Shown in pieces: positions 4,196-29,267 of a stretch of 64,000 bases of DNA. The stretch's first letter is position 1; each line of letters starts with the position of its first letter. Both the position numbers and the translations under genes were made by a program. Below the pieces are notes generated by a model. The model saw only the letters and a list, made by a program, of their open reading frames with translations. It had not been told where the DNA came from and did not search any database. This DNA comes from Candidatus Hydrogenedentota bacterium (GTDB lineage: Bacteria > Hydrogenedentota > Hydrogenedentia > Hydrogenedentales > SLHB01): the NCBI GenBank assembly GCA_963668025.2, contig CAXXTH010000013.1:1-64000 (forward strand). Direction: 5' to 3'.

Positions 4196-4339
4196 GTTAT
4201 TCTAAGGAGGCCCTTTACGCCGACATTGCGCCAGCGCCGCACGCCACACGTTTACGTTTCGTTCGAAATCGTTTCGCCATTTTCGACAACAAAACGGGTC
4301 AAATGGGCACACAACACCCACGACCCGTCAACAATTCGG

Positions 4340-4369
4340 ATTATACCTGCTATTCCCTCCTGCTGTCAA
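4340..4369 (-). promoter_or_regulatory. Sigma70 promoter for dnaG-rpoD
   Basis: Minus strand TTGACA(4369-4364)-N18-TATAAT(4345-4340); both hexamers match consensus exactly. Confidence 0.8.
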
Positions 4370-4428
4370 GGGCTGCAGTCCCCAAATCCGTAGATTGATT
4401 TATATTCTACATCTCTATCTCTAGACTA

Positions 4429-4860
4429 CTAATCGCGTCGCCATTCCCATAACTCTCCGCCTTCCTCATAAACATCTAGTATTCCTGGAGCAAATGAGCC
4501 ATTACTCATTTTACGCCCCATATCGACATAAAAAACTAATACCTTTCCATTTTCTAATATTGCCTGACCGACAAAAATGGTTCCAATATCTCGCTCTATT
4601 CGAATCTGTCTAATAGCACCTTTTTGAACGTCCAAGAGTTGCATAATTCTATTCCGCTCTATCTGTGGAACCTTAGATACAAACGGGATAGAACTGCCAT
4701 CGTGTCGCTCATCAAAACATTTTCTCACAAATTCTTCGTAGTCTGAACCATTTGCGAAAGAACTTAACAGACAGATCATATCCACAGCAATCATAACTAA
4801 TAGCACCAAGGTTATAATTATTATAATAATTACAGAAACAAATATAGCTCGATCTTTCAT
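4429..4860 (-). CDS. Hypothetical membrane-anchored protein, AT-rich
   Basis: 143-aa ORF with a strongly hydrophobic N-terminus. Much lower GC than its flanks. No family recognised. Confidence 0.6.
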   Translation of the reverse strand: MKDRAIFVSVIIIIIITLVLLVMIAVDMICLLSSFANGSDYEEFVRKCFDERHDGSSIPFVSKVPQIERNRIMQLLDVQKGAIRQIRIERDIGTIFVGQAILENGKVLVFYVDMGRKMSNGSFAPGILDVYEEGGELWEWRRD

Positions 4861-9973: not shown

Positions 9974-11505
9974 GTAACACTTTAGCCGACTGAAGTGTTT
10001 TCCGGTGGCAGGGGAGGCAATTGGCCGGTGTTGAGGTAGTGGACCAGGGCGTTGCAGACGGTGCAGACGGGGTTTTGCCCGCGTTTTTTCAAAGTAAAGA
10101 AGACGCTCATGAGCACCGCTTGTATGGCGGCTCCTTGGTCGCTGCGGTTGCAGTAACTGTTTTTGCGCAGGATAACGGCAGGACGGATGGAGCGTTCCGC
10201 CAAGTTGTTGTCGAAGGGAACATCTGATTGGCCGAGAAAAGTGAAGAGTTCATCCTGGTGTCGGCGCAGCCTTTTTATGAGGCGCTTGGCGTTGGCGTCC
10301 TCCCAGGGCGTATCGCACAAGTCCCGCAAGCGCCGGGCGAAGCGCGCGCGGCGCGAGTCGTACGCCTCCGGTTCGAGCTCGCCGCGCCGCCGCCACAGCC
10401 GGATGGCGTCGGCAATCAGGCGGCGCAGCTTTTTGGCGAAGGCGGGCCAGGCCGGGCTGGGCGATTTGTATTTCTCCACGTGCTCGAGTTCGCGCAACAA
10501 ATGCACGAGGCACTTCTGCCGGGCGGCGCACGCCACGGCGTTGTACGCGGCCCAGAAGTCGGCCACCAGCGTTCCGGCGAATTCCCGCGTGAAGAACTGC
10601 TGGAGCGCCGGACTCCCCCGCGAATGGTCGATCAGGAAAAAGCTCAGCCCTTTGGTGGCGAAACACCACAGCCATCGGGTCTTGCCATTCACGCGCCAGC
10701 CGGTCTCGTCGGCGTTGAGCACCGCCGAGTCCAGCGCTTCCTGGTGAATGGGCCTCGTACCAAGGCAGGAGAATCTCCGCCAGCCTGCGCCACATGTGCA
10801 GCAGCCCGCCCGGCGTGACCTGGAAAAGCAGGTGGAAATCGAAGACCTCCACGATTTGCGAAAGCGTGTTGCCCAACACATAGTGCAGCCACGCGCTGAG
10901 GACCAGCACCCGGTTGCCCAGGGTCGCGCCCGGCAAGGCCGCCGCCACAACCGGCTCGACTTTCTTCTTGCATCGCGGACACCAGTCGCGGTGAATGGTA
11001 TGCTCGGTGATTTCCGGACGGATGCCTTCGGGGTATGTCTTCGGTGTAGCGCGTGCGGGTCTCCGCGCGGCGGTCCAGCGGCCCGCCGCAGTCGGGACAC
11101 ACCTTGGTGCGGTGTGTTTCACGCCGGTCGATACGTTCGGGGCGGCACGCGCCGGCTGCCGGGGTGGCCCATCTTGCGTCCCGGCTTTTTCTTGCCGCGC
11201 ACAGGCGTCTGGGGTTTCCCGTAAACTGGCTGCATGCCCGAAGGGGGTGGAGGGCGTTTGGTGGGAAGTGAACGCCGCCTCGGCCTGCTGCTCCGACAGC
11301 AGCTTGGATTGCGCCAACAGGGCAAACACCACGGCATCTTCGCCCAATGCGTAGATCGCTCGGGCTTGCTCCTCCGAGAGCAGCGGTCCCAATGGAATGC
11401 CACTTATTGCCGTCGCCATGGCGTCTTGGCCCAAAACCACAACATCTTGTAACTATATTATACCGAAACGCTACTTATGGTTGCGCCAGACGGCTAAAGT
11501 GTTAC
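9974..11505 (-). mobile_element. IS66-family insertion sequence (single-ORF, ISBst12-like), copy 1
   Basis: 19-bp terminal IRs GTAACACTTTAGCCG(A/T)CTG. 8-bp target duplication AGAAAATC at 9966-9973 and 11506-11513. Confidence 0.95.
9982..11419 (-). CDS. IS66-family DDE transposase (TnpC-like), frameshifted in this assembly
   Basis: Zinc ribbon CPDCG...CPRC, ADETGWR, QKCLVHLLRE, DNNLAERSIRPAV. Has four extra G bases relative to copy 2. Two-copy consensus is ~477 aa. Confidence 0.9.
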
Positions 11506-11964
11506 AGAAAATCTATGTGGGCTGGAGAACAGGGAAAAGCAAAAGCCAGGGCGGAAGTGGGCGACCGTTTACCCGAATTCCGAGAGCAGCTTCTTAACAC
11601 CAAAGGCGAAGAACGTTTAGCCGTGCTTAAAACCATCCAGCGTAATGGCGTGGAGGTAATCATGGACGACTCTTTTCTTGATGCGATGGAGGTGTGCGCG
11701 GACGATTCCAATGTGGATGTACGTAGAATGGTGGCTCAAATAGCCGGGAAAAAGTGGGTGGCGGATGCCGAAGAACAGCTTCCCCGCGCCGTGGAACTCA
11801 TGCTGAGACTCTCGTATGATGTGGATAATGGAACGCAGAATATAGCTTTATATTTAGGGCTTATACCTGTTAAAAACAAACAGGAAGCCGTCATTCGGCG
11901 GTTGGTCGAGGCGGCATTAGTTATGCACATGCCTGATCACTACGATCGCATTATTAAAAACATC

Positions 11965-13497
11965 GTAACACTTTAGCCGACTGAAGTGTTTTCCGGTGGC
12001 AGGGGAGGCAATTGGCCGGTGTTGAGGTAGTGGACCAGGGCGTTGCAGACGGTGCAGACGGGGTTTTGCCCGCGTTTTTTCAAAGTAAAGAAGACGCTCA
12101 TGAGCACCGCTTGTATGGCGGCTCCTTGGTCGCTGCGGTTGCAGTAACTGTTTTTGCGCAGGATAACGGCAGGACGGATGGAGCGTTCCGCCAAGTTGTT
12201 GTCGAAGGGAACATCTGATTGGCCGAGAAAAGTGAAGAGTTCATCCTGGTGTCGGCGCAGCCTTTTTTATGAGGCGCTTGGCGTTGGCGTCCTCCCAGGG
12301 CGTATCGCACAAGTCCCGCAAGCGCCGGGCGAAGCGCGCGCGGCGCGAGTCGTACGCCTCTCGGTTCGAGCTCGCCGCGCCCGCCGCCACAGCCGGATGG
12401 CGTCGGCAATCAGGCGGCGCAGCTTTTTGGCGAAGGCGGGCCAGGCCGGGCTGGGCGATTTGTATTTCTCCACGTGCTCGAGTTCGCGCAACAAATGCAC
12501 GAGGCACTTCTGCCGGGCGGCGCACGCCACGGCGTTGTACGCGGCCCAGAAGTCGGCCACCAGCGTTTCCGGCGAATTCCCGCGTGAAGAACTGCTGGAG
12601 CGCCGGACTCCCCCCGCGAATGGTCGATCAGGAAAAAGCTCAGCCCTTTGGTGGCGAAACACCACAGCCATCGGGTCTTGCCATTCACGCGCCAGCCGGT
12701 CTCGTCGGCGTTGAGCACCGCCGAGTCCAGCGCTTCCTGGTGAATGGCCTCGTACCAAGGCAGGAGAATCTCCGCCAGCCTGCGCCACATGTGCAGCAGC
12801 CCGCCCGGCGTGACCTGGAAAAGCAGGTGGAAATCGAAGACCTCCACGATTTGCGAAAGCGTGTTGCCCAACACATAGTGCAGCCACGCGCTGAGGACCA
12901 GCACCCGGTTGCCCAGGGTCGCGCCCGGCAAGGCCGCCGCCACAACCGGCTCGACTTTCTTCTTGCATCGCGGACACCAGTCGCGGTGAATGGTATGCTC
13001 GGTGATTTCCGGACGGATGCCTTCGGGTATGTCTTCGGTGTAGCGCGTGCGGGTCTCCGCGCGGCGGTCCAGCGGCCCGCCGCAGTCGGGACACACCTTG
13101 GTGCGGTGTGTTTCACGCCGGTCGATACGTTCGGGCGGCACGCGCCGGCTGCCGGGGTGGCCCATCTTGCGTCCCGGCTTTTTCTTGCCGCGCACAGGCG
13201 TCTGGGGTTTCCCGTAAACTGGCTGCATGCCCGAAGGGGTGGAGGGCGTTTGGTGGGAAGTGAACGCCGCCTCGGCCTGCTGCTCCGACAGCAGCTTGGA
13301 TTGCGCCAACAGGGCAAACACCACGGCATCTTCGCCCAATGCGTAGATCGCTCGGGCTTGCTCCTCCGAGAGCAGCGGTCCCAATGGAATGCCACTTATT
13401 GCCGTCGCCATGGCGTCTTGGCCCAAAACCACAACATCTTGTAACTATATTATACCGAAACGCTACTTATGGTTGCGCCAGACGGCTAAAGTGTTAC
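11965..13497 (-). mobile_element. IS66-family insertion sequence, copy 2 (near-identical to copy 1)
   Basis: Same IRs. Its own 8-bp target duplication AAAACATC at 11957-11964 and 13498-13505. Confidence 0.95.
11973..13411 (-). CDS. IS66-family DDE transposase, copy 2, frameshifted in this assembly
   Basis: Same protein as copy 1. Its five single-base insertions fall in the 3' half, where copy 1 is intact. Confidence 0.9.
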
Positions 13498-14140
13498 AAA
13501 ACATCAGGGAATTTCAAACGGATCTTCGCCTCGTCGAAAGTGTCATGTCAGAATTCCTCGACGGGCCATTCGCTGACACCCATGCCGCCGCGTCCGTGTA
13601 TTTCCTGTATAAAGATTTGCTAGATCGGGAGCCGCCCAACGCGGACGTGTTCGCCGAAGCCATTGCCAAGTATCCCCGCGATTTGGTTTAGGATCACCTT
13701 TGCTGCGGCTGAAACGCTTGTTCCACATACGGAGGAGGCGCTGATGCAAGAATTCAGAAAAACAATGCCTAAAAATGTTTCGGTTGAGCATTTGCTGACA
13801 CGAAAAACGGGAGCTGACATTAGAATCACATTCCTTATTCGATGGTATAGTGTGCAAGATATAATAGTGCATATGGAGAAGCAAAACCCCAAACTTGCGG
13901 CTTGATCCCATATTCCCGGTCCCTCCGCAGATGCAGCTTTGGATGGAGGAAATTGAGCAATGGGATATCTAGAACTAAAAAATATTTATTACAGTAAGAA
14001 AATCGAGAAACTATCACTGCAGGGAACAGCTCTTGACGATACAACCGAATAAAGGGGTGTGAATTGCACTGCAAGAATGAGCGATCATTCTTTTGATAAG
14101 ATTGATAAGATTTTTTTGGTAATTTTCCTCCATGTTGGGT

Positions 14141-15887: not shown

Positions 15888-16304
15888 ATGTCGCAATTCA
15901 ATGGTATGCGGGCGTTGGTAGTGGATGATTACGAGAACATTCGCAAACGCCTGAGTGCGGCGCTCCAGCAGCTTGGGCTTGTGGTGGTGGTGGAGGCTTC
16001 GAATGGACTTGAAGCCATGGCCCTTTTACGCGGACAGCCGTTTGATATTGTCTTCACCGATATTGTCATGCCTGAGATGGACGGTTTTGAACTCTGTGAA
16101 GAAATCCGGAATACGCCCGACCTGAACGCCTTGCGGGTGGTCGTGGTGTCGACGCATTATGATACGAATTACATCATTAAGGCGCTACGTCTCGGAGCGG
16201 ATGATTATGTGCCCAAACCCATCGAGCCCGAGCTGGTAAGCCGGGTCATAGCCCGAGTGATGACACCCGTGAATCCCGGCGCCGTGAGTGGGGGAGATGC
16301 CTGA
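15888..16304 (+). CDS. Single-domain response regulator (CheY-like)
   Basis: Canonical receiver residues: VVDD, FTDIVMPEMDG, VVST, YVPKP. Confidence 0.93.
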   Translation: MSQFNGMRALVVDDYENIRKRLSAALQQLGLVVVVEASNGLEAMALLRGQPFDIVFTDIVMPEMDGFELCEEIRNTPDLNALRVVVVSTHYDTNYIIKALRLGADDYVPKPIEPELVSRVIARVMTPVNPGAVSGGDA

Positions 16305-18424
16305 TATGGTGACTACACATCATCAATCGGAAAACATGCTGGTTCGTAGCGAGCATCTGGATAAGTTGTTACTGCTGGCTGGCGCGGTGATTGTTTCCTC
16401 GAGCAATCAGAGCCTGGCGTATCGGAATCTGCAAGCCCTTTTAAGCCAGAAGGCGCCGGTGGACCGGGAGGTTGTCGAGAATTCCCGCGATCTTGCCGAG
16501 ACGACCACGAGTATTTCCCACGACTTGCATCAGCTTGTGCAGGCGATTCGCACGGTGAGTTTGAAGGATTTTAGCTTTCGCGCCCGCCGCTTGGTGCGCG
16601 ATTTGGCGCGAAAGACCGGCAAGCGTGTCCGTTTCGAGTTCGAGGGTGAAGATACGGCGGTGGATAAGGTCATAGTCGAAAAGTTATATGACCCTATTTC
16701 CCACCAGCTTCGAAATGCGCTTGATCACGGCATTGAAGATGCTCTTTCCCGAACGCGGTCTGGCAAGCCAGAAGAAGGATGCATTATCCTCAGGGCGTAT
16801 AACACCGAGCGTGAGACGTTTGTGGAGATTCAAGATGACGGCGCGGGAGTGGATCTCGAAGCATTGCGCCAAAAGGGTATTGCGCTGGGCCAAATCGGGC
16901 CTAACGATCTTTTTACGGAAGACGATGCGCTTAGGCTGATGTGCATGGCGGGCGTATCGACGGCGCGCACCATATCGGAGGTGTCTGGGCGCGGCGTCGG
17001 GATGGACGTGGTTTATAGCATGATCACGGAGCTGGGGGGGAACGGTTTCGTTCACTACCCAGCGCGGGAAAGGCAGCATCTTTACGTTTCGCGTGCCCCT
17101 CGTATCCGCGGTCAACATTGTGGATGCCCTTGTGGTGCGGGCTGGCGAGTATTTGCTGGCTTTTCCGATTAACAGCGTAGTGGCCACGGAGGCTGTGCCC
17201 CGTGGGCGAGTAAACAGCACGCTGGGCAAAGGGCGGACCATTACGTATCTTGGCGGCTTGCTGCCGTTGCATGATTTGGGGGTCGTTATTGATAATCGCC
17301 CGTCGGAAACGGCCCATTCCGAGAGTGTGCCTATTTTAATTGTTGAGTATAAAGCAACGCGCGTCGCTTTCCTTGTCTCCGAGTTCTATTCACCTCAGAA
17401 ACTGGTCATCATTCCCTTTGAAGGCCAATTCAACGTGCCTGGAATCACGGGAACTACCATATTGGGCGGCAAACAGCTCGGATTCATCATAGATCCTCCT
17501 TCTCTTCTCGATTTGGCTACGGGGAAAACGTCGTTATTTGCAGGTGTTCGTGCGAGTGGAGCGGTGGAAGAGCGGGGAGTGGAATTCGAGCCAACAAGCC
17601 TCCCGGCATCTGTGGAAAGCAGCCCTGTAGCTGCCCAGATGCCGCAAGAAGAAACCGCAACGGAAGAGCCCAGTTCCGCGAGCAAGAATGAAGCCGCACA
17701 GGAGTTTCTTGTAGAGATCGAGAAAATGATGCCCGCGCTCAATGAAGCGGTGTTTCTGCTCGAGTCGAACCGGTCGGATACGGACCTTATCAATAATGCA
17801 TTCCGCCTTTTGCACACCATTAAAGGCAATTTCATCATGATGGGCCTGCCTAAAGCAGGCGAGACGGTGCATAGCGTCGAATCGGTGCTCGATCGCGCGC
17901 GCAGCCATGAGCTCGATTTTACGCCGGAAGTCATGGATGTGCTCATGGATGGCGTGTCATATATTGAAGAGGTGGTGCGCCAGGGCAAGGCTGGTTCATG
18001 GCAAGATGAAGCGCAAAGTGATATTATCGGCCGGACGGCTTCTTTATTGCCGGAGCCTGCGCCCGCACTGAAGGACGATGCCGATGTGGCGGCGTCCCAA
18101 GTCGTGCTTTCCCATGAGGCCAGTTATCGCGCGGTCATACATCGCCGGCACGGCACGCCGATCTACCAGTGTTATGTCGAATTTACGGCTGGCATGCAGC
18201 CGCCATTTCTTGTAGCCTGCCTGATTTATAAGCGTTTTTGTGAGTTGGGCGATGTTCTAGGCACGACGCCTCCCCTGCCCGATGTCGAGCGGGGCATCAT
18301 GGATGGCCGGTTCAAGCTGCTCCTGGCGAGCCGCATCGACCCGGACGAACTCGAACCGCGGCTTCATACGCTGCTCACGCAGCATTATGGAGCGAAAGCG
18401 GTGGATATCACCCGGTATAAATGA
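16297..18424 (+). CDS. cheA: CheA-like histidine kinase with permuted domain order P3-P4-P5-P1-P2 (~708 aa after removing one G from G7 at 17034-17040)
   Basis: P3 VRSEHLDKLLLLAG; P4 HQLRNALDHGIE, DDGAG, VSGRGVGMDVV and, after correction, GKGSIFTFRVPL; CheW-like P5; Hpt FRLLHTIKG (His codon 17813); C-terminal P2-like domain. Confidence 0.88.
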
Positions 18425-19341
18425 TGGCGATCAAAACGTATCTATTCGAGAACGAGACCTACCGATTGGATGCAGCCTTGGCTGGCCTGCTTGAAGAGGC
18501 GGGCTATGTTCTTGAATCCATGGCGCTTCCCGCGCATCATGAGGACGCCGCCGCCCTGTTTGAGGGAAAGCCGGGCGGAATTGTGTTTCTCCCTGCGGTG
18601 TGGGAGGATTTGTTTTCCGTAAAGGTGGTGGATGAAATCGCCTGGAGCGATGTGCCCTTCGCCCTGATTATCGTGGGGCCTGCGCCGGAGCCTTCGCAGC
18701 TCATCGTAGCGTTTAATGAGGGCCTCAGTTCATACATCGAAACTCCGATAGACCCAGAACGATTGCGCCATATCGCCGGACGCGCCGCCTCCCGCTTGGA
18801 ACGCCGACAGGAACGGCAGACTCGCTTGCGCCGCCTTGCCGATAATGCTTCCCAGTCCGCCACGCCGGGCCTCACGCCGGAATTGATCGCACGCGATCAT
18901 TATCTTGGCCAGGCATTCTTGCGCTGCATCGAGCGGGAAGGCCGGCTCTTCGATAACGGCGTCCGCGCGCTGGTAGTCTCTTCGTCCCGCTCGCAGCAAA
19001 AGCTTATGGAAGGGCTTCTTCAACGCGTGGGCATTCGCGTGGAAGCCGCCATGTCCATGAAAGAAGCCTTGCGCGCAGTGGAGTCCGGCTCATATGCCGT
19101 TCTTATTTCTGATAATGTACTGCCAGATGGCGATGCGTGCGCTTTTGCCGCGCAACTTCAAAAACGGGCCAAGGGCCGCCTGCCGCGCTTAATTGTTTGG
19201 TCTGCTTCGCCAGATAAAGCCAATATGTTGATGAATCCCAACACGCATATCGACGATGTGATTCTTAAGCCGCCACCCAATACGGGTATCGAATCCGCAT
19301 TGCCCACCATCATCGCCGCGGTATGGAGTTCTCTCGCATAA
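18421..19341 (+). CDS. Tandem atypical receiver-domain protein
   Basis: Two CheY-like folds (AFNEGLSSYIETP; LISDNVLPDGD..VWSA..ILKP). ATGA overlap with the cheA stop. Confidence 0.75.
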   Translation: MMAIKTYLFENETYRLDAALAGLLEEAGYVLESMALPAHHEDAAALFEGKPGGIVFLPAVWEDLFSVKVVDEIAWSDVPFALIIVGPAPEPSQLIVAFNEGLSSYIETPIDPERLRHIAGRAASRLERRQERQTRLRRLADNASQSATPGLTPELIARDHYLGQAFLRCIEREGRLFDNGVRALVVSSSRSQQKLMEGLLQRVGIRVEAAMSMKEALRAVESGSYAVLISDNVLPDGDACAFAAQLQKRAKGRLPRLIVWSASPDKANMLMNPNTHIDDVILKPPPNTGIESALPTIIAAVWSSLA

Positions 19342-22193: not shown

Positions 22194-23183
22194 ATGGATG
22201 GGATTATTTGCCTGTGGCACGGCGTGAGGCGGGCCATGGTTTTAGGTGTGGTGCTGGCTTCGGTGGTTCACCTGGCGGCATATGGCGCGCCAGCGCCCCA
22301 ACTGGCGGCGGCGACGGGGGCTTCGAGCGCCGTGGATCCGGAACAGGCGGGGGCGGAAGCGGCAAAGGCCGCATTGAAGGGCTTGAACGGTGCGGAGCCT
22401 GTGCTGGTGTTGGTGTTTGACCATATGCCCGGCGCGCTGGCCGAGAAGGAGGCTTTGTTGAAGGGGGTATCGACCGCTTTCGATCCCTCCTTGGTCTATG
22501 GCTCGGATGCCTTTGGCCATCCCATCACGGAGGCGGGCAATAGTGGAACAGTAGCGGTCCTGGCCTTGTCGGGCCCCCTCACGGTCCATTCGGCGGTGGC
22601 GGCGGTGGGCGGCAATCACCGGGCCTGCGGCGAGCGGATAGGCGCGGGACTCCAGGAGGCGGCCAAGGCCGATGCGCCCGGACGGCTGGTAGTGCTGCTG
22701 GGGGAATGCCACGTGCCCGCCAATGCGGACCTGGTGCAGGGCGTCAACGCGGTGCTTGGGGCGGATTTCCCGGTCGTTGGGGCGGCCCATCCATTGGGCG
22801 GCTACCTCTACTGCCAGGGCAAGGTGTCGCAGGACACCGGTATGGCCCTGCTGCTTACGGGAGACTTCCGTTGCGGCTACAGCTTGCGCAATGGGGACGG
22901 GGTCGAGGGCATCATTACGTCTGCGGGCGAAGCGGCGCGTGAAGCGGTGGGAGATGGCGGCGGCCGTTTGGCGGCCTTGCTGGCGTTCGACTGTGCTGGC
23001 CGCATGGCGGCCCTGGGCGACGCCCCTACACGCACCCGGGAGCTGGAGGCCATCAAGGCGCAGGCGGCCGGGAAACCGGTCTTTGGATTCTACAGCAGCG
23101 GTGAAATCGGCCTGCGCCCAGGCTCGAAGACCCCGGAAGGAGTCGGGTTGCATCTTTCCACCTGCGCCCTGCTGCGGCCATGA
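22194..23183 (+). CDS. FIST (NosP-like) domain protein with a signal peptide
   Basis: FIST_C signature AFDCAGR...PVFGFYSSGEIG, plus FPVVGAA and an N-terminal hydrophobic signal. Confidence 0.85.
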   Translation: MDGIICLWHGVRRAMVLGVVLASVVHLAAYGAPAPQLAAATGASSAVDPEQAGAEAAKAALKGLNGAEPVLVLVFDHMPGALAEKEALLKGVSTAFDPSLVYGSDAFGHPITEAGNSGTVAVLALSGPLTVHSAVAAVGGNHRACGERIGAGLQEAAKADAPGRLVVLLGECHVPANADLVQGVNAVLGADFPVVGAAHPLGGYLYCQGKVSQDTGMALLLTGDFRCGYSLRNGDGVEGIITSAGEAAREAVGDGGGRLAALLAFDCAGRMAALGDAPTRTRELEAIKAQAAGKPVFGFYSSGEIGLRPGSKTPEGVGLHLSTCALLRP

Positions 23184-24905: not shown

Positions 24906-27032
24906 CTATTTTTGTAGTAAAAAAATGCGCGTCTCGCCGGGCGCGAAGGGTGCATGGGCCGCGCCGGTTATTGTATCACCCGCTGGCAGGATGGGCTGCC
25001 CCGTTACGCCTTCGGGCAGGATGATTTCCTTTTCACCGCCTTCGCCGTAGTGGACAAACAGGGTGCGGCCGTCGCATTGGACTGCGCCGCCTTGAGCGGC
25101 CCAGCGGTGCGCGCCGAGGCGGGCGAGGAGCTTGCCGGCCATTTCATCCGTGAGCTTCGCGCTGCCGATGAACACGGAGGTATGGCGGCCATGCTGCTTG
25201 ATCGCGGCGGATACGCCTCCGCCGTGCTGGTAGGTTCCGAGGACGGCGGCTTCCGCATCGGCGCACGCAATCCGTGGCGTTAGGAACAAGTCTTCGCCCC
25301 AAGTGCATCCTTCGAGGCTTCCCGCGCCTGTGCTGGCCATGGGGCCGCTGTCCGCCGCCAAGGCCATGCCGGTGAGCTGGGTTGCTCCCGCCAGGCTGGG
25401 CTTGCCATCGAGCAGATAACCTGGTGCGTATTGCCACACCGCCGCCGCGCCTTCCTCGTCGAGGCGCGCGAGGATGCGCTCGATGCGCGCCGCGTCCACG
25501 GCGAAAAGGTCCGGGAACCAATAGACGCCGCATTTGGGCGTCTGGCCCGCCAAGAAGTCTTTGAGGTAATAATAGCCACAGGTGACGCCCGAGCGCCCGA
25601 AGACCTCGCGGGCCTTTCGGCACATAAAGTCGTAGATGGGGCTGTAGCATGCCTGGCCTTCAATGGCGGGGTAGTTCAGGTAATTCAGCGAGGCTTCATC
25701 GACGATGACAGCCACATCGGGTGTGTAGGGGGCTGGCGCTTCGATAAGGGTGTCGTAAAGCGGGGAGAGCGTTTCCTTGATTCGCCGCCAGACGACGGGA
25801 TCGGCATAGGCTCCGGCTGCGATGAGGTCCATCCACCAAGTGCCGCAGCGGTGGGTGAGGAGGCCGCCGAATTCGCGCGTGATGACGCCTAGGGTTTCCG
25901 CCTGATCTTTGGCGCGCGGGCCAAGGCCGGACTCGGTGATCCATTCGGGCAGCGAGGAGATATCGAGTATGTCCGTACGATAGTCGTTTTCGACCAGCCA
26001 CAGTTTTCCGTTCACGGGCAACGAGTCAATGGCGGTCATGAAGCCGCCCGAGCCGCCCGGCTGGCGGTCCATGTAGGAGAGGGGGCTCACGAAGATATCG
26101 GCGTCCGGGCACTCGATGGCGGTCTCCATGTCGAAATGCCCCGAGGTGGCCCCGTGCATCTCGAAGAAATAGCCGTAAAAGAGCAGCACGAGCTTGTTCG
26201 GCCCCGCCGTCTGCTTGGTGAGGGTGGCGAGGCTCATGACGCGGCGCGCCATCAGTTCATTCGTGTAGAAATGGAAGTCGCACAGCGGCTGCTGTTCGGG
26301 TAAAGCAAGAAACGAGGCGAACGGCGCATCAAGCAAGCCGCATGGGGCGCTGGCGAGTCCGGGCATGGGGGGGAGCATGGCGGTGTCCAGTGTGACACGG
26401 TCATCGCCCCACGCGGCTTGCAGCGCGCCATCATCGCCATACCGCGCCGTGAGCCACCGCCGGAACGCTTGCGCGTTCACGGCGCTGTAGTCTGGGCCTT
26501 TCAGCCAATACTCGTAGTGAAACCATTCGCCCGTGTTCTGGCCGCAGGGATGGTAGCCGATGATGCGTTCTGCGAAGCGGCTGTTTTCGAAATGGCGGAT
26601 GGCGCGCGCATAGCTTTCCGTGAGGGTATTCCACCATAGTTCCGAGGCGAGGCAGGTCATGTCCGCCTTCGAGCCATCGGCATGCTGAACCAATTCATTG
26701 GGATGCTCCGCCATCCATGCCGCCGAGCCTTCGGTGCGCAAACGGGGAATAAACAACGCATCGGGATCAGCTTCCAGGAAGGCGTCGAAGAAGGCCTCGC
26801 CTCGAGCGTAGACGGCCTCCTCTGATTCGCCGGGCCACGGCCAAGGCACACAGAGCGAGTAGAGGTGTACGCCCGCTTCCGACGCGAGTTTCACTTGCGG
26901 CGTGAGGAATTTCCGCCCGGTTTCCACTTCGGTATTGAAGAAGAAGATCAGGGGGCGGGTGGGCTTGCCGTTGATTTGAAGCACAGGGGTTCCCTGCTGC
27001 ATCACTATATTTGCGTCTAGTTTGCTGTTCAT
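24906..27032 (-). CDS. Putative GH42-like (clan GH-A) glycoside hydrolase, no signal peptide
   Basis: IIGYHPCGQNTGEWF, DYS..AFRRWL..RY....LQAAW, ENDYRT, WWMDL. Confidence 0.75.
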   Translation of the reverse strand: MNSKLDANIVMQQGTPVLQINGKPTRPLIFFFNTEVETGRKFLTPQVKLASEAGVHLYSLCVPWPWPGESEEAVYARGEAFFDAFLEADPDALFIPRLRTEGSAAWMAEHPNELVQHADGSKADMTCLASELWWNTLTESYARAIRHFENSRFAERIIGYHPCGQNTGEWFHYEYWLKGPDYSAVNAQAFRRWLTARYGDDGALQAAWGDDRVTLDTAMLPPMPGLASAPCGLLDAPFASFLALPEQQPLCDFHFYTNELMARRVMSLATLTKQTAGPNKLVLLFYGYFFEMHGATSGHFDMETAIECPDADIFVSPLSYMDRQPGGSGGFMTAIDSLPVNGKLWLVENDYRTDILDISSLPEWITESGLGPRAKDQAETLGVITREFGGLLTHRCGTWWMDLIAAGAYADPVVWRRIKETLSPLYDTLIEAPAPYTPDVAVIVDEASLNYLNYPAIEGQACYSPIYDFMCRKAREVFGRSGVTCGYYYLKDFLAGQTPKCGVYWFPDLFAVDAARIERILARLDEEGAAAVWQYAPGYLLDGKPSLAGATQLTGMALAADSGPMASTGAGSLEGCTWGEDLFLTPRIACADAEAAVLGTYQHGGGVSAAIKQHGRHTSVFIGSAKLTDEMAGKLLARLGAHRWAAQGGAVQCDGRTLFVHYGEGGEKEIILPEGVTGQPILPAGDTITGAAHAPFAPGETRIFLLQK

Positions 27033-27050: not shown

Positions 27051-29267
27051 CTATTGAACCGGAGAGAGTTCCAGCCAGGCCGATTCGTCTCGTTCTAGTT
27101 GGAGTTCCACAAGGCCGCCTTCTTGTTTCACGAGCGTTCCGCTGATTACCGAGGCTTTTATCCCTTCGGGCAGGCGGATGGCCAGCGGCCCGGCAGCGCT
27201 ACGGTGGACCTCTAATGTGCGGCCGTCGCATTGCACGATGGAATCATCGGATGTCCAAATATGCGCGCCTGCCTGCTCGAATACTTTCCGCATCACCGAG
27301 GGTGTCAAAGCGATATCGGCGAGGTAAACACTCTGGAAGCCATCGGATTTTTTGCGTGCCGCGGAGATAGCGCCATCACTGTCGTAACGGCCCATTACTT
27401 CCGCTTCGGGGTCTTCCACCACGGGGCGCGGCGAGACGTTCTCCGCCCAGCCCCATGCCATTCCGGCCAGCAGCCCTTCGCCAGTGCTGCCTTGTACGCC
27501 TGACTTGGAAGCGGTTTTGATACCCGTGAGCGATTCGCACCGCGCGGCGTCAAAACCTTTTGGGCCGTAAGCGTTCGGCGCGTAGACCCAAAGGGCGGTG
27601 GCCTGTTCTTTCGCTAGGCGCGCCCGTATTTGGGTGGTTTGCTCGGTTGTGAGCCAATTCGTGTTGGGGAAGAGATAGGCCTTGCACGGCGGTACGACGC
27701 CATCAATGAAATCCTTGAGCGTGTAGAAGCCGGCTGTCACCCCGGCCTTCATGGAGATATTGCGCATTTCGAAGAGGAGATGGTTGTAGGCATCCCAATC
27801 GCTTTTGTAAATGGCTTTTGAACGTTCATCTACGATAAAGGCCACATCGGGATGGTAGGGTGATGGATTATCATATATACGCTTGTAGAGGGGCATGCGG
27901 GCTTTCATCAGCGCCCATTGGGCGGGATCATTGAACGCACCGCCCGCGAGGAGGTCCATCCACCAAGTGCCTGCGCGGTGGGTGAAGGCGTTGCCCAGGT
28001 TGCGGCCCAGCATGCCGAGGGTTTCTTGCATGTCTTTGGCTTGGCCGCCACACCATAAGCTGATCGATGGAGGTACTTTTTTGATGTCAAGCACGCTCGT
28101 GCGGCTGTCGTCCTCGTTGAACCACAGCTTGCCGTGGGCGGAAATGCTGTCCACCGGCGACATGAAACCGCCGGGATCGCCGCCCACGCGGCCCATATAG
28201 GTGTAGGGGCTGGCGAGGATATCCACCTCCGGGCATGCAAGGACGCGGTCTAGGCGGCTGTGGCCGGAGAAACTGCCGCATAGCTCGAAAGTGTAGCCAT
28301 AAAAGAACGCCGCCAGTTTTTTACTTTGCGTTTCCTGCTTGATGAGCTTGGCCCAATCGATGATGCGTTCCGCGGTAATGTCGCTCACATACAGAGAATA
28401 GTCAATCCAGTCTTGTTCTTTTGGGAGTTGATAAAACATCTCGACGGTAAGGCCTTTTTCGGTCTCGATGCCATGCATGGGAAAGCGGCCAGGCTCCGTA
28501 GGGGGCATGCTGGCCGTATCGAGCGTAATGTCCGTGCGGCCCCAGGCGGCTTGCAAGGCTTCGTCCGTCTTGTATTGTTCCCGCAGCCAAATTCGGAAAC
28601 GCGCTTGGTTCACGGGGCTGTAATCCGGGCCTTTTTCGCGGTATTTATCAGCGAACATTTCATGCTCGGGGCCGCCTACATGGTAGCCGATGATCCGGTT
28701 CCCGTAAGGGCTTTCCTCGACGTGGCGGATGTCATTTGCTAACTGGTTATTTGTAAGATCCCAAAAAAAACTGGACGCCATGGAAATGAAGTTGTGGGTT
28801 CCATCCGCGAAGAGGGATAGCTCCGATTCCGGTATGGATTTCCATTCGGCCCAGAATGGCCATGGTCCGGGAAACATGCGCAGGAGAAACACGGCTTGCG
28901 GGTCCGCTTCGAGAATGGCCGCGACATCGTTATCCGCACGCGTATACAGAACAGCTTTTCCATCATCGGAACGTTCCACCCGGAACGGGAAGGAGTAGAG
29001 ATGGACCCCCGCATCGCGGGCCAGCGCCACTTGCGAACGCAGGAATTCGCGTGAGTATTCGCCGGGGATATCGGTGTTGGGGAAAAACACCAGCGGCAAA
29101 TAGGGAGCGTTATTCAATGTGAGAAGCGGAACGCCGTTTTTGATTTGTATGGATGCTTGCTCGATGGAGGCTGGAGGGGTTTGGGCGGTTACGGTTGCAC
29201 ATAATGTGAGCATGGCGGATATGCAAAGCAGGTGATAACCATGGTGAATGGAGTGGATGATGGACAT
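27051..29267 (-). CDS. Putative GH42-like glycoside hydrolase, exported paralog
   Basis: Signal peptide ending TVTA; IIGYHVGGPEHE, DYS..RFRIWL..Y....LQAAW, EDDSRT, WWMDL. Collinear with the downstream gene. Confidence 0.75.
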   Translation of the reverse strand: MSIIHSIHHGYHLLCISAMLTLCATVTAQTPPASIEQASIQIKNGVPLLTLNNAPYLPLVFFPNTDIPGEYSREFLRSQVALARDAGVHLYSFPFRVERSDDGKAVLYTRADNDVAAILEADPQAVFLLRMFPGPWPFWAEWKSIPESELSLFADGTHNFISMASSFFWDLTNNQLANDIRHVEESPYGNRIIGYHVGGPEHEMFADKYREKGPDYSPVNQARFRIWLREQYKTDEALQAAWGRTDITLDTASMPPTEPGRFPMHGIETEKGLTVEMFYQLPKEQDWIDYSLYVSDITAERIIDWAKLIKQETQSKKLAAFFYGYTFELCGSFSGHSRLDRVLACPEVDILASPYTYMGRVGGDPGGFMSPVDSISAHGKLWFNEDDSRTSVLDIKKVPPSISLWCGGQAKDMQETLGMLGRNLGNAFTHRAGTWWMDLLAGGAFNDPAQWALMKARMPLYKRIYDNPSPYHPDVAFIVDERSKAIYKSDWDAYNHLLFEMRNISMKAGVTAGFYTLKDFIDGVVPPCKAYLFPNTNWLTTEQTTQIRARLAKEQATALWVYAPNAYGPKGFDAARCESLTGIKTASKSGVQGSTGEGLLAGMAWGWAENVSPRPVVEDPEAEVMGRYDSDGAISAARKKSDGFQSVYLADIALTPSVMRKVFEQAGAHIWTSDDSIVQCDGRTLEVHRSAAGPLAIRLPEGIKASVISGTLVKQEGGLVELQLERDESAWLELSPVQ

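Follow-up and report, generated by a model that had tools for sequence, protein, structure and literature searches.

A putative CheA-class histidine kinase with the domain order P3-P4-P5-P1-P2 in a Candidatus Hydrogenedentota genome

The kinase gene and its two neighbours

CheA is among the best-studied signalling kinases, and its domain order, P1-P2-P3-P4-P5, is treated as a paradigm. Here we describe a gene in which the same domains follow one another in the order P3-P4-P5-linker-P1-P2. It lies in a stretch of 64,000 nucleotides from a Candidatus Hydrogenedentota bacterium (assembly GCA_963668025.2, contig CAXXTH010000013.1, positions 1 to 64,000 of the forward strand), the whole of which is called the window below. 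An earlier note on this DNA, made without database searches, had proposed this order.

Three plus-strand genes lie in succession at positions 15888-19341 of the window, and according to the window open reading frames (ORFs) their stops and starts overlap or abut. The stop of the CheY-like gene (16302-16304) overlaps or abuts the start of the kinase gene (ATG at 16297 or 16306), and the gene of the third, tandem-receiver protein starts 4 nucleotides within the kinase end (ATGA). A promoter and terminator scan put promoters at chance level and was uninformative. The features of the locus are as follows.

15888..16304, plus strand: gene 1 of the cassette, CheY-like single-domain response regulator of 138 amino acids (Pfam Response_reg, E 1.9e-29)
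16297..18424, plus strand: permuted cheA, whole gene, P3-P4-P5-linker-P1-P2, in two frames with one surplus G (the upstream ORF opens at 16288)
16288-17172, plus strand: upstream kinase ORF, truncated (Pfam HATPase_c, E 5.4e-7, 30.5 bits)
16348..16551, plus strand: predicted P3 dimerisation hairpin, mapped through the alignment from the AlphaFold2 (AF2) model of the relative P0002 (helices 16-48 and 55-83)
16564..17098, plus strand: P4, ATP-binding kinase domain (Pfam HATPase_c; catalytic boxes in the alignment), with the frame break inside it
17034..17040, plus strand: homopolymer of seven G (G7) inside P4, one G surplus by the sequence and by relatives that are in frame
17093-18424, plus strand: downstream kinase ORF of 443 amino acids, with CheW, Hpt and P2 in that order (Pfam)
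17117..17491, plus strand: P5, CheW-like domain (Pfam CheW; the genome scan placed PF01584 at 17126-17512)
17525..17671, plus strand: Ala/Glu-rich tether from P5 to P1, predicted to be disordered (predicted local distance difference test score, pLDDT, below 50 at residues 407-462 of the P0002 model)
17672..18046, plus strand: P1 (Hpt) helix bundle (Pfam Hpt; model pLDDT ~90)
18113..18418, plus strand: P2, response-regulator docking domain at the extreme C-terminus (Pfam P2; predicted alpha/beta domain, pLDDT 84-90)
18421..19341, plus strand: gene 3 of the cassette, tandem-receiver protein of 306 amino acids (Pfam Response_reg at residues 184-286)

Domain order of the kinase and of its relatives

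At the level of Pfam domains, the order proposed in the earlier note was borne out, and the details of its observation that could be checked were all correct. In the 443-residue ORF, CheW (P5, PF01584) occupied residues 12-140 (E 1.1e-13, 51.4 bits against a cut-off of 23.5), Hpt (P1, PF01627) residues 202-289 (E 2.9e-11, 43.9 bits) and P2 (PF07194) residues 358-425 (E 9.4e-6, 26.1 bits against a cut-off of 23), while HATPase lay upstream. The three domains are encoded without interruption, and hidden Markov models do match both of the C-terminal ones. The codon at 17813-17815 is CAC, as predicted for the phospho-acceptor histidine of the Hpt motif FRLLHTIKGN, and this histidine in FRLxHTIKGN is at least 90% conserved in the family alignment. 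P4 has its N box (HQLRNALDHGIE), G1 box (DDGAG) and G2 box (SGRGVGMD), all of them nearly invariant in the same alignment, and HATPase_c scored 44.8-73.2 bits in the relatives. The acidic, Pro/Ser-rich linker described between P5 and P1 is present as well. It is 63 residues long in the window; across 25 relatives its length is 37-73 with a median of 62, and its composition includes Ala at 17% and Glu at 14%. P2 passed its cut-off in nine of ten close relatives and in seven of twelve long representatives, reaching 76.8 bits in P0138.

The second level of comparison consisted of alignments with canonical CheA proteins, where the two halves fall into a permuted register. Residues 52-399 of P0002, the closest intact relative, matched positions 321-665 of the NCBIfam model CheA_Halo, and residues 199-415 of the 443-residue window ORF matched positions 2-226, spanning P1 and P2. 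The NCBIfam equivalog cut-offs were missed (330.6 bits against 950 for CheA_Halo, 244.7 against 793 for PRK10547). The core of P0002 aligned to the P3-P4-P5 chain of Thermotoga maritima CheA (residues 10-397 to residues 2-375 of 1b3q) and to Escherichia coli CheA (residues 5-403 to 257-643), and its residues 469-560 aligned to residues 9-100 of the T. maritima P1 chain 1tqg. BLASTP against a canonical CheA of 616 amino acids (locus L103) paired window ORF residues 13-149 with 475-609 and residues 199-282 with 21-104. Judged by sequence, these domain matches and permuted-register alignments lie far beyond chance.

The AF2 model of P0002, made from an alignment of 27 rows, had a mean pLDDT of 75.7. 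It consists of a hairpin (residues 16-83), a kinase alpha/beta domain (88-265), a beta-rich P5 (272-395), a disordered segment (407-462, pLDDT <50), a helix bundle (459-583, pLDDT ~90) and an alpha/beta domain (606-707, pLDDT 84-90). The best Foldseek matches of this model were CheA core structures (6s1k, 8c5v and 1b3q). Taking alignments and model together, all five CheA domains are present, in the order P3-P4-P5-linker-P1-P2, and a CheA-type P3 lies directly ahead of P4 without a phospho-acceptor DHp domain.

If one kinase has this order, then we can ask: Is it alone? It is not. A word-seeded protein search with the 443-residue ORF as query returned 246 proteins at E<=1e-5, so that the window protein is one member of a sizeable family. 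Among the best 120 of the 246, 107 are proteins of 673-724 amino acids with 93-100% query coverage and 36-58% identity. Shorter pieces make up the remaining 13, one of them the window's own product. Pfam gave the same domain order in all 23 full-length relatives scanned (10/10 close relatives, 12/12 long representatives and one longer protein), with P2 under the listing threshold in a few of them.

An exhaustive profile search over 1.84 billion representatives at 50% clustering gave 13 that match the family profile end to end in one stretch (547-1150 bits). Two longer proteins of 771 and 830 amino acids (P0127 and P0138) matched in two stretches. Ranked above P0138 were family fragments and two long proteins of canonical type, P0135 and P0136 (534-540 bits), whose best stretch (kinase domain or core) is at the C-terminal end. 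Below it came canonical CheAs, with the core likewise C-terminal, interspersed with family fragments and core-only calls. A search for longer proteins added one more permuted protein, of 809 amino acids; this single search, weak evidence as such, held no duplicated intermediate. The permuted architecture and its family are almost certainly real.

Phylogenetic relatedness was evaluated on the P3-P4-P5 cores. The FastTree tree had 89 rows, comprising 26 of 119 permuted proteins, all three core-only proteins and every second of the 120 best canonical matches. A branch with 100% local support placed the 26 permuted and three core-only rows on one side and the 60 canonical rows on the other. A single origin of the permuted family is likely on this tree, but it is not proven, because the root is only a midpoint. 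The three core-only proteins (416-484 amino acids) each stand beside a full-length permuted protein, which is where truncated gene calls would be expected to fall.

How did P1 and P2 come to lie behind the core? Among the 120 nearest canonical CheAs none had P1 after the core. A P2-like match was found in 17 of these 120, about 40 residues after P1. In the permuted family P1 and P2 are 33-37 residues apart, and because this distance is so similar, the sequences suggest that the two domains were relocated together, as one block. Possible routes are the fusion of two split genes and a duplication followed by deletion. By analogy with the bipartite CheAs, a core gene followed by a Hpt gene would be a plausible evolutionary intermediate for the permuted fusion.

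The distribution of the family is patchy. With the same query the permuted gene was not found in 30 relatives, where only canonical CheAs matched, piecewise. At E<=1e-40 it was found in one of 135 genomes of the phylum, namely the window's own. A profile scan of genome contigs returned mostly generic CheA motifs, and one of the 80 loci kept, L024 from a Planctomycetaceae metagenome-assembled genome (MAG), was a true family member. Labelled relatives come from MAGs of Nitrospinota, Bacteroidetes and Pseudomonadota and from a hydrothermal vent metagenome. Because of this patchy distribution and the 58% identity to the nearest relative, horizontal acquisition would fit.

The kinase does not travel alone. 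We compared the window's four protein pieces by tblastn with 15 loci, L024 and 14 metagenome loci reached through alignment of the C-terminal part. All 12 loci that include upstream DNA have a CheY-like gene immediately before the kinase. Directly downstream, tblastn detected a gene of about 300 codons in 12 of the 13 loci with room for it; in the 13th, L024, an ORF of 300 amino acids with a C-terminal receiver stands in this place (Pfam and position). The cassette of CheY-like regulator, permuted kinase and tandem-receiver protein is thus conserved, and it is translationally coupled.

The CheY-like protein keeps all receiver active-site residues, and DD, D58, T89 and K110-P111 are invariant in seven cassette orthologues. 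For the product of gene 3, AF2 predicted two (beta-alpha)5 receiver-like domains with long helices connecting them (mean pLDDT 83), and the best Foldseek matches were to the tandem-receiver regulator PleD. Its N-terminal domain has no acceptor Asp. The C-terminal receiver keeps Asp231, Ser and Lys283-Pro284, and Ser-Ser(-Ser) replaces the acidic pair in seven of eight sequences. At E<=1e-10 this product matched thirteen proteins of 301-307 amino acids, itself and 12 homologues, and four of the thirteen lie on contigs equal in length to permuted-kinase contigs. An Atlas search with the gene 3 product returned generic receiver clusters only.

Beyond the three cassette genes the neighbourhoods differ. 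In L103 the DNA directly downstream of the cassette (L103:4133-8570) encodes the canonical CheA of 616 amino acids (Hpt, dimerisation, HATPase, CheW), a CheW and a methyl-accepting chemotaxis protein (MCP) with a Tll0287-like sensor, so that this organism carries both CheA orders side by side. In L024 a soluble MCP lies beside the cassette (L024:10424-12217), with iron-hydrogenase-like and 4Fe-4S domains fused to the signalling domain. In the window's genome other chemotaxis and motility genes are found elsewhere: 11 CheW-domain matches (four other cheA loci), six MCP matches, FliM and flagellins.

Some further genes of these neighbourhoods may be recorded. About 3 kb downstream of the window's cassette, beyond genes on the opposite strand, is a FIST-domain putative sensory protein (22194-23183, plus strand). 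In L091 a receiver-GGDEF diguanylate cyclase (L091:2607-3560, minus strand) stands divergently, about 0.7 kb upstream of the CheY-like gene (4271-4684). Two adjacent window ORFs of 708 and 738 amino acids (24906-27032 and 27051-29267, minus strand) had no Pfam match at E<=1e-4. The region 10250-13444 has a high G+C content (0.61-0.64 at 12000-13500) and long ORFs on both strands, and those scanned there (396, 209 and 391 amino acids) had no Pfam match.

Proposed phosphotransfer and competing explanations

The best explanation of the locus, on sequence and model, is a CheA-class histidine kinase whose P1(Hpt)-P2 module was probably moved as a block from the N-terminus to the C-terminus. Taking architecture, family and mechanism together, we give this reading a probability of about 0.8. 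For the mechanism the background is as follows. In CheA, P1 is a mobile substrate domain, and the part of P2 is only to make CheY locally more concentrated. Even when P1 is supplied as a separate protein it can be phosphorylated (Garzon & Parkinson 1996, as cited in the available part of Berry, Andrianova & Zhulin 2023, PMC10782961). On account of this established biology, a mobile and separable P1 and a helping P2, we propose phosphorylation of P1 on its tether.

The polypeptide would run from P3, P4 and P5 through a disordered tether of about 60 residues to P1, and through a spacer of about 36 residues to P2. It would dimerise through P3. P4 would phosphorylate the histidine of P1, which would swing in on its tether of 37-73 residues, the anchor of this tether being the end of P5 and not the start of P3. 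P2 would dock the CheY-like regulator of the cassette, to which the phosphoryl group would then pass. The atypical pocket of the tandem-receiver protein makes its role uncertain; second acceptor, sink and modulator are the candidates. Control would come from receptor-CheW complexes encoded elsewhere, which we assume from the kept P5. This phosphotransfer scheme, drawn by analogy, is in our estimate fairly probable, and the default expectation is that the kinase works like any CheA.

Several observations weigh against this picture. The P2 match in the window exceeds the Pfam cut-off by 3 bits only, and Pfam H-kinase_dim (P3) was undetected in the window ORF at E<=1. As assembled, the window copy has a broken frame, and the same G7 is seen in the sequencing run that covers the stretch fully, so that the strain may carry a dead gene. 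L024, the only other copy from the genome collections, is frame-broken too, 10 codons downstream. The tree has local Shimodaira-Hasegawa-like support, a midpoint root and half of the 120 best-scoring canonical matches. The C-terminal receiver of the gene 3 product may escape phosphorylation, since its metal-binding acidic pair is gone. Finally, a scan of 17 large ORFs at 418-32659 of the window detected neither an MCP nor a CheW, and the neighbouring ORFs scanned in loci L091, L093 and L099 had none either.

The P3 assignment is the weakest element of the domain assignment. The earlier note had the protein start with the dimerisation helix, and this stands on the relatives and on predicted structure, while the window ORF itself gave no Pfam match for it. 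In the close relatives H-kinase_dim was weak to moderate, matching five of ten with only one above the cut-off; all 14 representatives matched, 12 of them above it. We assign P3 because of the alignment of the relatives, their H-kinase_dim matches, the solved P3-P4-P5 chains and the predicted two-helix hairpin. As to the receptors, the kinase retains P5, yet receptor and CheW genes are normally missing from the cassette, and for this reason input probably comes from receptor and CheW sets encoded elsewhere, which is an assumption.

The frame break calls for closer weighing. The earlier note had alluded to a frameshift; it lies in the G7 run at 17034-17040, and the window copy itself is frame-broken there. 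The two kinase frames meet precisely at ELGG|TVSF, a place at which (E/D)LGGTVSF runs straight on in relatives. Since the two pieces abut with no residue missing or extra, we take one G to be surplus. Run X1, the probable source, contains all sampled words of the stretch, and in its contig of 2810 nucleotides the G7 recurs, with a word depth of only 2.3. A contig of 569 nucleotides from an independent study (run X2), with nine mismatches and about 98% identity, has one letter fewer at 17034 and is in frame because it reads G6 there. All 13 metagenome loci are in frame at this site; one of them, L092 (coverage 1.7), has a frame change elsewhere in P3-P4. In L024 the break is at L024:7700-7712, where CCC stands in place of the needed CCCC, a change of opposite sign to the surplus G, and we take its nearness to the G7 site as coincidence. 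The G run is not conserved, the longest G/C run being 2-5 in the 14 other loci with the motif (15 scanned). The frame break is not a family feature and is not programmed. We lean towards an error of a very low-coverage assembly, and regard a recent inactivating lesion as a possibility to be held tentatively.

Of the competing explanations, a real pseudogene in this strain survives best, though we hold it somewhat doubtful. Slipped-strand change of G6 to G7 would then have truncated P4 before its last strands and left this strain with a dead cassette, in a family that is functional elsewhere. The G7 stands both in the window and in the contig of the fully holding run, and two other loci have frame breaks, L024 nearby and L092 elsewhere in P3-P4; moreover, with one occurrence in 135 genomes of the phylum, the gene looks like a dispensable, horizontally acquired accessory. 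Yet the word depth of 2.3 is one at which homopolymer errors survive assembly, the 98%-identical contig of the independent study has G6, and both halves are stop-free and align to relatives without loss, so that any lesion would be very recent.

A further alternative accepts the architecture and differs on its meaning. Here the relocation of P1-P2 would not be neutral but would give a kinase with a different control logic and a distinct chemosensory class, which we think unlikely. In such a kinase the access of P1 to P4 might depend on the state of P5 or on the tandem-receiver protein, and it could act in cis, not in trans. The cassette might then be a self-contained, horizontally mobile module, plugging into host receptor arrays or bypassing them. 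Such a class, improbable as it is, would fall outside the classes of Table S2 in PMC10782961 (F1-F17, ACF and Tfp), as far as the part of the table available goes.

Another explanation makes the G tract a phase-variable or programmed-frameshift switch for the kinase. Homopolymer on/off switching is a known bacterial mechanism, and G6 and G7 alleles do both occur in near-identical sequences. However, a length of 6-7 is close to the lower limit for efficient slippage, and the tract is unconserved, with runs of 2-5 in the 14 other loci and read-through in 13 of 13 metagenome loci; we regard such a switch as very improbable. The last explanation, in which the permutation is an assembly chimera or a kinase-core gene and a separate Hpt-P2 gene read as one, might call on the bipartite CheAs with a separate Hpt gene described in the available part of PMC10782961 and on the three core-only proteins of the family, but we reject it as next to impossible, because P5, tether, P1 and P2 share one uninterrupted ORF in the window and in the 13 metagenome loci, 107 of the 120 listed relatives are single proteins of ~700 amino acids from many sources, the core-only proteins nest beside full-length permuted ones as truncated calls would, and the misassembly that the earlier note had allowed for is contradicted by independent contigs and more than 100 relatives with the same architecture.

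Published CheA architectures and comparison with known systems

We found no published description of the order P3-P4-P5-P1-P2, earlier surveys of CheA not being covered. The earlier note was not aware of a description of this order, and none turned up in print, but the order is implicit in public protein databases under automatic names. The relatives are called 'CheA', 'ATP-binding protein' or 'Hpt domain-containing protein', and one is in UniRef. Because these proteins sit in public databases, automated architecture catalogues must contain the order.

Berry, Andrianova & Zhulin 2023 (PMC10782961) surveyed thousands of CheAs and discussed domain loss, gain and duplication. In the available part of this work P2 loss, added receivers, duplicated CheW, Hpt or P2, fusions with CheC or CheX and bipartite forms are treated; changed domain order is not discussed there, and 'permut' and 'rearrang' do not occur. 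Its Table S2 lists ordered architectures alphabetically within each class. The heads of the blocks for classes ACF, F1-F4, F9-F14, F16, F17 and Tfp, the part of the table that was checked, contain no row in which the core precedes Hpt; F5-F8 and F15 fall outside this check. 'Nitrospin' has no occurrence in the tables of the paper. Vass, Bourret & Foster (bioRxiv 10.1101/2022.05.07.491035) describe 12 major CheA architectures and rare 'CheW-like domains fused to Hpt', and in the available part of that text no permuted CheA is stated.

The permuted order would surprise CheA specialists. If the kinase behaves like any CheA, it is a tidy architectural curiosity. Even so, a permutant that nature has made and conserved offers an experiment already set up on how strongly cis versus trans autophosphorylation depends on where the P1 tether is attached and on how long it is. 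It also bears on the gating of P1 access in receptor arrays, and on whether multidomain kinases are rearranged through fission with later fusion or through a duplication followed by deletion. The conserved companions and the missing dedicated receptor or CheW gene may point to an undescribed type of chemosensory module.

With the canonical CheA of E. coli and T. maritima the kinase shares the same five domains, the catalytic boxes and the histidine motif of Hpt, and the predicted folds match the solved cores. In contrast, canonical CheA has P1-P2 ahead of P3, while the window kinase has P1-P2 after P5, with the tether leaving the P5 end. The kinase cores of the two fall into separate groups, and the permuted operon has no cheW, mcp, cheR or cheB among the window ORFs and in most loci.

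In the split or bipartite CheAs, such as CheA3/CheA4 of Cereibacter sphaeroides or a core with a separate Hpt gene, P1 is phosphorylated without N-terminal attachment (PMC10782961, available part). Unlike these, the permuted family consists of one polypeptide with a tether of about 60 residues, and a two-gene form appears in it only as truncated calls.

The gene 3 product resembles regulators of the PleD type, which likewise have two tandem receiver folds, one of them degenerate. Unlike PleD it has no GGDEF or other output domain; a long helical linker connects its domains, and in the better-conserved receiver Ser-Ser-Ser replaces the acidic pair.

The hybrid kinases ArcB, BarA and TorS have a C-terminal Hpt, a DHp histidine and a receiver between kinase and Hpt, forming a His-Asp-His relay. 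The permuted kinase is like them in having its Hpt towards the C-terminal end, and unlike them in having neither a receiver nor a DHp phospho-histidine. For want of these two elements, Hpt would have to be the direct substrate of P4, as it is in CheA.

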